Notes: generated by a model from the sequence alone, not told the origin. DNA of 64,000 nucleotides from Escherichia coli (GCF_036507355.1 NZ_AP027877.1); one strand, 5' to 3'; counted from the stretch's first letter, positions 6,893-64,000 are shown. A program made the numbers and translations.

Positions 6893-7759
6893 CTAAGCGA
6901 GGTTCTGGTTTTCAAATTGTTCCGGACTGAGGCCGCCACACCAACTGTGCCGCCGCCACCGATTGTAATCACATTCGATATAATTAAACACCGTTGCCCG
7001 CATTATTTCCCGGCTGATAAAGTGTTCTCCATGGATACATTCCACTTTCAGCGAATGAAAGAAGCTTTCCACGCAGGCATTATCGTAGCAGCAACCTTTT
7101 GCGCTCATACTTCCACGCAGATTATGCCGCTTCAGTTGCGCCTGATAATCTGCTGAACAGTACTGGCCTCCACGGTCCGTGTGAACGATAACGTTCCGGG
7201 GCCTCTTACGCCGCCACAGCGCCATCTGCAGGGCATCGCAGGCCAGTTGCGCCGTCATGCGTGGCGACATTGACCAGCCAATAACGGCACGTGACCACAG
7301 GTCAATGACCACTGCCAGATACAGCCAGCCTTCATCTGTACGTAAGTACGTGATGTCTCCTGCCCACTTCTGGTTCGGGCCACTGGCGTAAAAATCCTGC
7401 TCCAACAGATTTTCTGACACAGGCAGGCCGTGTGCGCGGTAGCTGACCGGGCTGAACTTCCGGGAGGCCTTTGCCCTCAGTCCCTGACGGCGCAGGCTTG
7501 CCGCCACGGTTTTTACGTTAAAGGGGTAACCCTGAGCACGCAGTTCATCCGTCAGGCGTGGGGCACCGTAACGCTGTTTTGACCGGGTAAAAGCCGCGAG
7601 GACAACGCTGTCGCAGTGTTGGCGGAACTGCTGACGCGTGCTTATCCTTGTCCGCCGCTGACACCACGTATACCAGCCGCTGCGGGCCACCCGGAGCACG
7701 CGGCACATTGCTTTGATGCTGAACTCAGCCTGATGTTTTTCAATAAAGACATACTTCAT
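6893..7759 (-). CDS. insF: IS3 transposase OrfB (DDE integrase domain)
   Basis: 288-aa [35 protein letters not shown]... with DDE-type catalytic region. Confidence 0.9.
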
Positions 7760-62246: not shown

Positions 62247-63665
62247 ATGGAAACCAATATCGTTGAAGTAGAGAACTTTGTTCAGCAGTCAGAAGAGAGG
62301 CGGGGTAGCGCCTTTACGCAGGAAGTGAAACGCTACCTGGAGCGCTACCCGAATACGCAATATGTTGATGTTTTACTTACCGATTTGAATGGTTGCTTCC
62401 GTGGAAAACGTATTCCTGTTTCAAGCCTGAAGAAGCTCGAGAAAGGGTGTTATTTCCCGGCCTCGGTGTTTGCAATGGATATTCTGGGCAACGTAGTAGA
62501 AGAAGCAGGCCTGGGTCAGGAAATGGGTGAGCCGGATCGTACCTGTGTCCCTGTTCTTGGTTCCTTAACCCCTTCTGCCGCCGATCCAGAGTTTATCGGT
62601 CAGATGCTCCTGACCATGGTCGATGAAGATGGCGCTCCCTTTGACGTTGAGCCGCGGAACGTTCTTAACCGCCTGTGGCAGCAGCTGCGCCAGCGCGGAT
62701 TGTTCCCGGTCGTAGCGGTAGAGCTGGAGTTCTATTTACTGGATCGTCAGCGCGACGCTGAAGGGTATCTGCAACCGCCCTGCGCGCCCGGCACCGATGA
62801 CCGCAATACACAAAGCCAGGTTTACTCGGTTGATAACCTCAACCACTTCGCCGATGTGCTCAATGATATTGATGAACTGGCGCAGTTACAGCTGATTCCG
62901 GCAGATGGCGCGGTCGCTGAGGCCTCGCCGGGTCAGTTTGAAATCAACCTTTACCATACTGATAACGTGCTGGAAGCCTGCGATGATGCGCTGGCACTAA
63001 AACGCCTGGTGCGTCTGATGGCAGAAAAGCATAAGATGCACGCCACTTTTATGGCGAAGCCGTATGAAGAGCACGCGGGCAGCGGAATGCATATCCATAT
63101 CAGTATGCAAAATAATCGTGGCGAGAACGTGCTTTCTGACGCGGAAGGCGAAGATTCGCCGCTGCTGAAAAAAATGCTCGCCGGAATGATCGATCTGATG
63201 CCGTCATCAATGGCGTTGCTGGCACCAAACGTGAACTCGTATCGCCGCTTCCAGCCAGGTATGTATGTACCGACGCAGGCGTCGTGGGGCCATAATAACC
63301 GTACCGTCGCCCTGCGTATTCCATGCGGCGATCGCCATAATCACCGCGTGGAATATCGCGTGGCGGGTGCCGATGCCAACCCATATCTGGTGATGGCAGC
63401 GATTTTTGCCGGTATTTTGCACGGTCTTGATAACGAGCTGCCGTTGCAGGAAGAAGTCGAAGGCAACGGGCTGGAACAGGATGGCTTACCCTTCCCGATT
63501 CGCCAGAGCGATGCCCTGGGTGAGTTTATCGAGAATGATCACCTGCGCCGCTATTTAGGCGAACGGTTTTGCCATGTGTATCACGCCTGTAAAAATGATG
63601 AGCTGTTGCAGTTTGAGCGCCTCATCACAGAAACAGAAATTGAGTGGATGTTGAAAAACGCATAG
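62247..63665 (+). CDS. puuA: glutamate-putrescine ligase PuuA
   Basis: 472 aa glutamine synthetase-family protein starting METNIVEVENF. Confidence 0.9.
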   Translation: METNIVEVENFVQQSEERRGSAFTQEVKRYLERYPNTQYVDVLLTDLNGCFRGKRIPVSSLKKLEKGCYFPASVFAMDILGNVVEEAGLGQEMGEPDRTCVPVLGSLTPSAADPEFIGQMLLTMVDEDGAPFDVEPRNVLNRLWQQLRQRGLFPVVAVELEFYLLDRQRDAEGYLQPPCAPGTDDRNTQSQVYSVDNLNHFADVLNDIDELAQLQLIPADGAVAEASPGQFEINLYHTDNVLEACDDALALKRLVRLMAEKHKMHATFMAKPYEEHAGSGMHIHISMQNNRGENVLSDAEGEDSPLLKKMLAGMIDLMPSSMALLAPNVNSYRRFQPGMYVPTQASWGHNNRTVALRIPCGDRHNHRVEYRVAGADANPYLVMAAIFAGILHGLDNELPLQEEVEGNGLEQDGLPFPIRQSDALGEFIENDHLRRYLGERFCHVYHACKNDELLQFERLITETEIEWMLKNA

Positions 63666-63967
63666 TACCCCTTGCGGGGTTGTTTCATCGGCCTGAGCGG
63701 AGCCAGGCCTGACATTTGCTGGTAATCCAGACATTTCCCGGATGTCGCGTTATGGAGCGCAGGCGGCAACGGGCTTCCGTTAACGATTAAGACTGTGACG
63801 AGGAAATGAGATGATGCCGATGATTAAATCCCCGCATGGCGCGGGAGGCTGCGTATGCGCCCCTCCTGCGACTGACTGGACTCCGCCCCCTTTGCTTCCC
63901 TTGCTAAACAGGTTTGATTTCAGGTCGACACGACCGCAAACCTTATTACGCAGGGGAGGCAGCAATT

Positions 63968-64000
63968 ATGGCTATTAATTCACCACTGAATATTGCTGCG
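63968..64000 (+). CDS. puuP: putrescine importer PuuP, 5' end only (runs off the window)
   Basis: ATG with upstream ggagg RBS; encodes MAINSPLNIAA. Confidence 0.6.
   Translation, partial: MAINSPLNIAA

Follow-up and report, generated by a model that had tools for sequence, protein, structure and literature searches.

The spacer between puuA and puuP of Escherichia coli holds a small open reading frame (ORF) that runs into the start of puuP, and the question is whether this ORF is a leader that couples puuP translation to its own translation or a chance frame in a GC-rich spacer, the two possibilities raised by a sequence-only reading of the locus. We analyzed a stretch of 64,000 nucleotides of E. 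coli (GCF_036507355.1, NZ_AP027877.1; hereafter the window), the last 2 kb of which represent the puu locus, with puuR and puuD on the minus strand followed by puuA, the spacer, and the start of puuP. An O157:H7 chromosome matches this region with 100% identity. The genes and the initiation signal concerned are as follows.

62247-63665, plus strand: puuA (glutamate-putrescine ligase), ending in TAG at 63663-63665; RefSeq annotation, transferred to the window from an O157:H7 record of 100% identity, and the ORF list
63800-63805, plus strand: Shine-Dalgarno (SD) sequence of ymjE, GAGGAA, 5 nt ahead of the first ATG of ymjE (7 nt counted from the GAGG core)
63811-63978, plus strand: ymjE, 55 codons from the first ATG (ATG1) plus TAA; ORF list, RefSeq, PF23692, conservation, and SPA-tag detection (PMC6001520)
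63968-64000, plus strand: start of puuP (putrescine/H+ symporter), which continues past the end of the window; RefSeq annotation

The puuA-puuP spacer is 302 nt long, and ATG1 of ymjE is located 157 nt 5' of the puuP ATG (63968-63970). The stop codon of ymjE (63976-63978) lies 8 nt into puuP, of which the first 33 nt are in the window, and is contained in puuP codons 3 and 4 (ATT AAT, +8 to +10), giving an overlap of 11 nt between the two genes. The ORF that had been placed at 63813-63980 is indeed present with the same 55-codon translation, MMPMIKSPHGAGGCVCAPPATDWTPPPLLPLLNRFDFRSTRPQTLLRRGGSNYGY, and overlaps the puuP start; the earlier coordinates were merely offset by +2. The description of the spacer as GC-rich holds in a moderate sense (56% as opposed to 50% window-wide).

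RefSeq starts ymjE at the second ATG (63814-63978, 54 aa) in all E. coli records inspected, including K-12 MG1655 (b4742). The conserved start is probably ATG1 (55 aa), the annotated one being one codon late: in the 29 genera-level sequences compared, ATG1 was invariant and ATG2 was found in 27, and the CGAGG of the ymjE SD was unchanged in all of the 29 aligned leaders. A mini-ORF, ATG AGA TGA (63806-63814), overlaps the start codons of ymjE, and most genera carry either ATG-NNN-TGA or a start-stop (ATG-TGA) at this site, Klebsiella being without it. A 61-codon ORF on the minus strand (63780-63965) also overlaps ymjE and was regarded as a chance ORF, as the minus-strand frames average approximately two stops in other species. 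The YmjE peptide matched Pfam PF23692 ('YmjE-like') over its full length (1-54) with 143.9 bits and an E-value of 1.3e-42 (cut-off 27), and the NCBIfam search of the peptide matched no family model. The sole difference from K-12 YmjE is E10A in the 54-aa numbering; codon 10 (63841-63843) is GCG for Ala here, where K-12 and 34 out of 39 Enterobacteriaceae encode the Glu that is conserved in G-E-G.

The existence and translation of ymjE are already known, and what is new here is the proposed function, not the gene. VanOrsdel (2018) detected YmjE by immunoblot with a chromosomal SPA tag and found ymjE positive in tetracycline ribosome profiling (TetRP), and suggested that its function is related to the neighboring gene (PMC6001520). 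In LB, YmjE was seen at a low level, ranking near the bottom of the small proteins in abundance (Weaver, 2019). The supplements of VanOrsdel (2018) and Adams (2021) hold no entries for ymjE, puuP, or yoeI, and our literature search retrieved no paper tying puuP to an upstream ORF (uORF) or a leader. Databases list YmjE as a protein of unknown function, with a range limited to Escherichia/Shigella and some relatives.

Taken alone, the E. coli sequence says little about the ORF. ATG-initiated ORFs of at least 55 codons occurred in 968 of 5000 (19%) dinucleotide-preserving shuffles of 63666-63990, so the length in a single sequence is not beyond chance and the caution of the sequence-only reading was justified. 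A megablast search found puuA and the ymjE spacer together in 4373 of the 5426 complete E. coli genomes, neither query being matched in the remaining 1053; identity to the window within the species was mostly 98-99% for the spacer and ymjE and mostly 96-97% for the 3' part of puuA. As a protein search retrieved YmjE homologues only from Escherichia, Shigella, E. albertii, and one Kluyvera, a range that would suggest a young and possibly meaningless ORF, we compared the puuA loci directly at the DNA level, taking one genome per species.

A PuuP-family gene follows puuA in 82 loci, comprising the 80 fetched and two E. coli records. Each of the 73 loci, all of Enterobacterales, in which the spacer measures 266 nt or more has an ATG ORF with 55-78 codons that keeps the same frame (+2) relative to puuP; this ORF could be followed through Klebsiella, Enterobacter, Citrobacter, Buttiauxella, Serratia, Rahnella, and others. 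Within a span fixed at 62 codons, the ORF frame contained no stop in 65 of the 73 loci (the eight exceptions are shorter ORFs), whereas the other five frames contained 1.9-3.0 stops on average and were open in 0-6 loci. Indels were counted in nucleotide alignments, not in peptide-guided ones, within eight clades; 9 out of 9 inside the ORF were multiples of three, as opposed to 1 out of 45 in the upstream spacer. The pN/pS values of the ORF frame (0.43-0.63) were lower than those of the shifted frames (0.65-1.26) in all eight clades. The conservation analysis named as a check in the sequence-only reading thus speaks for a maintained frame in every long-spacer locus, and the lack of conservation that was to count against the ORF was clearly not observed. 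PF23692 recognized the Escherichia versions and, barely, those of Klebsiella, missing most of the other ORFs traced here; as judged from the loci compared, the YmjE family of Pfam and RefSeq is far too narrow. In two Pseudocitrobacter loci, PuuA, PuuP, and YmjE were 97-98% identical to the Escherichia versions and closer to them than those of Klebsiella or Citrobacter, which suggests a horizontal transfer of the puu cluster involving Pseudocitrobacter. A contig labeled 'Chryseobacterium sp. 18061' bears an Enterobacter-like puuA-ymjE-puuP and is probably a contamination or mislabeled.

The position at which the ORF ends is also kept. The uORF stop spans PuuP codons 3 and 4, taking the third position of the former and the first two of the latter, and was found at +8 of puuP in all of the 73 loci, as TAA in 70, TGA in two, and TAG in one; in the two TGA cases, the fourth residue of PuuP is Asp, not Asn. 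Codon 3 of PuuP ended in T in 73 out of 73 loci with the uORF, even though PuuP has nine different residues at this position (T, I, A, D, F, N, H, L, and V), each of which also has a synonymous codon ending in C. By comparison, none of the nine loci without the uORF has a codon 3 ending in T. With T fixed at a synonymous position, the point at which the upstream ribosome terminates is apparently under selection independently of the PuuP protein sequence.

Folding the RNA around the overlap predicts that the puuP SD is paired with the coding sequence of ymjE. The elements are as follows.

63892-63907, plus strand: 5' strand of the masking helix, UUGCUUCCCUUGCUAA, in YmjE codons L27-N32; minimum free energy (MFE) folds and covariation of the C-tract:SD pairs
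63946-63962, plus strand: 3' strand of the masking helix, containing the puuP SD GGGGAGG (63953-63959); local fold
63910-63943, plus strand: inner hairpin AGGUUUG...CAAACCU with GGUCG-ACA-CGACC, inside the masking helix; folds and covariation

In the MFE prediction, the masking helix comprises 16 bp, and its C/U-rich strand is situated within ymjE, 55 nt 5' of the puuP SD. For the 101 nt from 63880 to 63980, the local fold was estimated at -38.1 kcal/mol (z = -5.15), a stability that 0 of 200 shuffles reached. In 30 genus- or species-level sequences, 95.6% of the cells in the cores of the two helices pair, as opposed to 35-66% when the cores are slid, and compensatory changes were found in six out of the 12 consensus pairs of the masking helix and inner hairpin. 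Between the C-tract and the SD, CG was changed to UA seven times and to GC six times; in the inner hairpin, four of the seven consensus pairs bore compensatory changes, such as GGUUUG/CAAACC to GAUCUG/CAGAUC, or GAUUUG/CAAAUC. An analogous helix between a C-tract and the SD is present in distant plaP-type leaders (see below). The median predicted accessibility of the SD was 0.14 in the loci with the uORF and 0.32 in those without it (p = 0.014), a modest gap between loci that are not phylogenetically independent.

The best-conserved 3' part of ymjE coincides with these helices and with the SD and AUG of puuP, and LLPLLNRFDFRSTRPQT appears as the 'conserved core' of the Escherichia peptide because it overlies the RNA helices. 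A Pro-Pro-Pro run (P24-P26, 63883-63891) lies immediately 5' of the masking-helix strand, and a ribosome paused there would keep the puuP SD open. Nevertheless, a pause dependent on EF-P was rejected as the general mechanism, since the run is confined to the clade of Escherichia and Pseudocitrobacter. A hairpin suspected just 3' of the GEGG motif in the ORF was also discarded, as no RNAalifold consensus was obtained and the registers differ between clades.

Two further parts of the leader are conserved, namely the beginning of the peptide and the RNA ahead of it, which is preceded by a candidate terminator.

63820-63849, plus strand: N-terminal motif M-I-K-S-P-H-G-A-G-G (consensus M-F-K-Y-P-(H/Q)-G-E-G-(G/E)); amino-acid conservation
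63682-63810, plus strand: conserved structured leader element of ~130 nt, 5' of ymjE; alignment, RNAalifold, pair counts, and nhmmer
63690-63695/63704-63709, plus strand: hairpin P1 with the loop AGCGGAGC; RNAalifold and covariation
63719-63722/63727-63730, plus strand: hairpin P2; RNAalifold and covariation
63737-63740/63770-63773 with 63744-63748/63763-63767, plus strand: hairpin P3; RNAalifold and covariation
63667-63680, plus strand: terminator-like hairpin ACCCCUUGCGGGGU followed by UGUUUCAU, directly after puuA; pattern scan and spacer alignment

The N-terminal motif keeps its residues despite free variation at the third codon positions; across 39 loci, we counted 17 TTT and 12 TTC, 16 TAT and 13 TAC, 18 GAG and 16 GAA, and all four Gly codons. 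This conservation, together with a pN/pS of approximately 0.5, exceeds what pure coupling needs, implying that the peptide sequence matters in some way.

In the spacer alignment, the element at 63682-63810 was more conserved than the body of the ymjE ORF. For P1-P3, 98.1% of the cells were paired, as opposed to 26-41% when slid, and compensatory changes were detected in all three hairpins; in a single sequence, the stability of the element was unremarkable (z = -0.61). The invariant motif at the 5' end (GCAUCAU; in E. coli GUUUCAU, 63682-63688) is complementary to the start region of ymjE (AUGAUGC, 63811-63817), and this pairing with the start codons is invariant and hence yields no covariation signal. 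An anti-SD pairing of CAUUUCC with GGAAAUG is present in the MFE structure of E. coli, and is likewise almost invariant, with no compensatory change. The nhmmer search found the element in all puuP leaders of Enterobacteriaceae (E-values below 1e-28) except that of Pluralibacter gergoviae, and found none in Serratia, in the plaP-type leaders, or ahead of yoeI. Scanning 63400-64000 against Rfam 15 with E-values up to 10 returned noise, the best matches scoring 15 bits against thresholds of 50-70 (E = 0.2-9). The element is likely a gate on ymjE initiation, possibly a riboswitch-like one, if it lies within the mRNA.

As for transcription signals, the terminator-like hairpin after puuA is weak, and the hairpins found there in other genera lack a U-run. 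A pattern scan for a sigma-70-like promoter gave a sole match, inside puuA. A sigma-54-like promoter, AGGCCTGACATTTGCT (GG-N10-GC, 63705-63720), overlaps P1 and P2 and was rejected, as its spacing is not kept outside Escherichia; a table in a paper on NaF lists RpoN and RpoS for puuP/ymjE (PMC10100675).

A second leader of the same geometry precedes plaP (b2014), which encodes the low-affinity putrescine importer of E. coli and is a paralogue with 63% identity. The gene yoeI (b4678; 2087052-2087114 of NC_000913.3, corresponding to 7053-7115 on the minus strand of our record L084) encodes 20 aa (MGQFFAYATVITVKENDHVA) and, as with ymjE and puuP, shares 11 nt with the importer gene that it precedes, its TAA being located at +8 of plaP (ATG TCG CAT AAC). 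It differs from ymjE in its short length, in the absence of the upstream element of Enterobacteriaceae, and in that no SD-masking helix is obvious by eye, an upstream terminator-like hairpin with a U-run being present instead. A yoeI-plaP construct complements fully, whereas plaP alone does not (Halvorsen, 2024; PMC11630599). This result is the sole experimental hint at function and, by analogy from the paralogue, points to a positive effect in cis.

In a third of the fetched loci, the importer beside the puuA paralogue was plaP-like. The uORFs of the plaP type begin with MGQ(F/Y)F and end with HV(C/R/A), like YoeI, of which the N-terminus is MGQFF; longer versions (MGQFF...HVC) occur in Serratia, Rahnella, Rouxiella, Ewingella, and Hafnia. 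The beginning of the motif (M-x-Q-Phi-F-K) is common to the YmjE-type and plaP-type leaders, and a profile-profile comparison of the two types of peptides gave a probability of 61% and an E-value of 8e-5 over the full length. YmjE and YoeI appear to belong to one widely conserved family of importer leaders. The plaP-type leaders (L057-L083 and L084) share, ~110-215 nt 5' of the uORF start, a promoter-like sequence (TTGTCA-N17-CAAAAT) and, after it, a perfect hairpin of the terminator type (AACCGACG...CGUCGGUUAUUUUUUUU), with a CCGGA hairpin before the uORF SD; this arrangement may represent an attenuator of transcription where the leader begins.

The uORF has been lost in some lineages. In six Serratia spp. 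(L045, L049, L050, L052, L053, and L061), the spacer is ~125 nt with no uORF, and the puuP ATG directly follows the SD of the leader (…UACAGGACGCCGGU GAGGAA…AUG). The sequence upstream of puuP in these species is colinear with that upstream of the uORF in the uORF-bearing Serratia. Thus, the ORF body can disappear from a locus that retains the importer and the leader upstream, as would be expected of a relay element more than of a trans-acting protein that is indispensable. Three loci of Erwinia and Pantoea are also without a uORF.

Altogether, we consider it probable that ymjE is a translated, cis-acting leader ORF of puuP, with PuuP synthesis coupled to ymjE translation. Of the two possibilities in the sequence-only reading, a leader coupled to puuP is the better supported, given the stop pinned at +8, the covarying SD helix, and the geometry shared with yoeI-plaP; both the dependence of puuP translation on ymjE translation and a regulation through the leader are what we infer from sequence comparison and folding. 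In the free mRNA, the puuP SD (63953-63959) would be paired with 63892-63907 inside ymjE, so that ribosomes could not easily start on puuP by themselves. A ribosome translating ymjE would melt the masking helix and stop at the TAA 8 nt into puuP, by which the terminated ribosome would be placed on the opened SD and AUG, and coupling would be achieved by termination-reinitiation, SD unmasking, or both. How often ymjE is translated would probably be set by the upstream structured RNA, which is able to pair with the ymjE start codons, if this RNA is part of the mRNA, and perhaps also by the N-terminal nascent peptide; polyamine status would be the obvious candidate for the input signal. Slow termination at +8 would cover the SD and AUG of puuP, so the effect of ymjE could turn negative under some conditions.

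Translational coupling by SD unmasking or termination-reinitiation is established in bacterial operons. The classical coupled pairs resemble ymjE-puuP in that the downstream SD is held in a helix by coding sequence of the upstream gene, whose stop is only a few nt from the downstream start; in contrast, ymjE is a poorly conserved short ORF, not an enzyme gene, that appears to serve mainly this coupling, and is preceded by a conserved structured RNA. In biology, the closest systems are mdtU-mdtJI and speFL-speF. The former is, like ymjE-puuP, a translated uORF ahead of a polyamine transporter; mdtU translation is required for the expression of this spermidine exporter of E. coli, and a pairing between part of the mdtU RNA and the ribosome-binding site of the gene downstream has been predicted (Adams et al., 2021; PMC7815308). 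On the other hand, mdtU stops 106 nt upstream of mdtJ, works with Rho-dependent premature termination, and is most strongly conserved C-terminally (PMC7815308), whereas ymjE overlaps puuP by 11 nt and the conservation of its peptide is N-terminal. In speFL-speF, the translation state of a leader ORF of the polyamine pathway also controls the downstream genes (via PMC7815308). However, SpeFL is a characterized ornithine-sensing arrest peptide that acts through Rho and mRNA structure, and has no sequence similarity to YmjE.

A polyamine-dependent uORF can also be repressive, an example being the eukaryotic AdoMetDC uORF. Applied to this locus, ribosomes paused at the ymjE stop would block the SD and AUG of puuP, possibly more so at high polyamine. 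We regard this explanation as doubtful. The fixed stop would set the terminating ribosome directly over the puuP initiation region, as repression demands, and polyamine-responsive stalling near the stop is known for speFL and has been proposed for mdtU (PMC7815308). Nevertheless, the inclusion of yoeI raised PlaP function in the paralogous system (PMC11630599), and the masking helix predicts low puuP initiation when the uORF is not translated. Furthermore, the C-terminal residues of YmjE are dictated by the SD and AUG of puuP and thus give no independent sign of a C-terminal arrest motif. Ligand-sensing arrest peptides (SpeFL, TnaC, and the proposed MdtU) place a conserved motif in the exit tunnel at a defined stall site; the motif that YmjE keeps at the amino-acid level is the N-terminal MFKYP(H/Q)GEG.

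YmjE may otherwise be a small protein acting in trans, for instance by binding PuuP or PuuA, with the overlap being ordinary operon packing. The product is detectable and was suggested to work in relation to the neighboring gene (PMC6001520), every clade has a pN/pS value lower than 1, and selection for the residues themselves is visible in the conserved N-terminal decapeptide. We nonetheless judge this explanation unlikely. Between genera, hardly any alignment of the peptide body is possible, and the lengths range from 20 aa (YoeI) to 78 aa; the peptide has no hydrophobic segment, and AlphaFold2, run on a 19-sequence alignment, predicted neither a fold nor secondary structure (pLDDT 58, pTM 0.11). 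YmjE is of low abundance (Weaver, 2019), its best-conserved 3' part is that of the RNA helices and the puuP SD/AUG, and some Serratia that keep puuA-puuP have the ORF deleted. A function in trans also leaves the stop pinned at +8 unexplained.

The region may have been conserved solely as structured RNA, either a riboswitch-like leader or a processing site, with the open frame being incidental. Covarying helices indeed occur both upstream of ymjE and inside the ORF, and the noncoding upstream part is more conserved than the ORF body. This explanation, however, predicts neither the stop-free frame in 65 of the 73 loci nor the in-frame indels (9 out of 9), neither the free synonymous variation beneath a fixed peptide motif nor one stop position kept by three different stop codons, nor a detectable protein (PMC6001520), and we consider it very improbable and effectively excluded. 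A functionless chance ORF in the GC-rich spacer, for which the 19% of shuffles of the single E. coli sequence with an ORF of equal length would speak, is refuted by the conservation of the frame (open in 73 out of 73 loci), with all of the comparative evidence and the published detection of the protein (PMC6001520) standing against it.

The coupling of PuuP synthesis to ymjE translation, our preferred reading, offers the orphan small proteins YmjE and YoeI of E. coli a function that can be tested. It would add an unrecognized post-transcriptional layer to putrescine uptake, which has hitherto been described mainly through PuuR and sigma factors. In practice, deleting or cloning puuP or plaP without the leader ORF may alter expression, as has already been seen for plaP (PMC11630599). 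More tentatively, it is possible that YmjE and YoeI are branches of one ancient leader device for the importers of the PuuP/PlaP family, in which a sequence-specific N-terminal nascent peptide (M-x-Q-Phi-F-K) and, in Enterobacteriaceae, the ~130-nt RNA would sense polyamine or cation status and set the supply of ribosomes to a fixed termination site. If true, this would be an undescribed post-transcriptional feedback on putrescine uptake across Enterobacterales.
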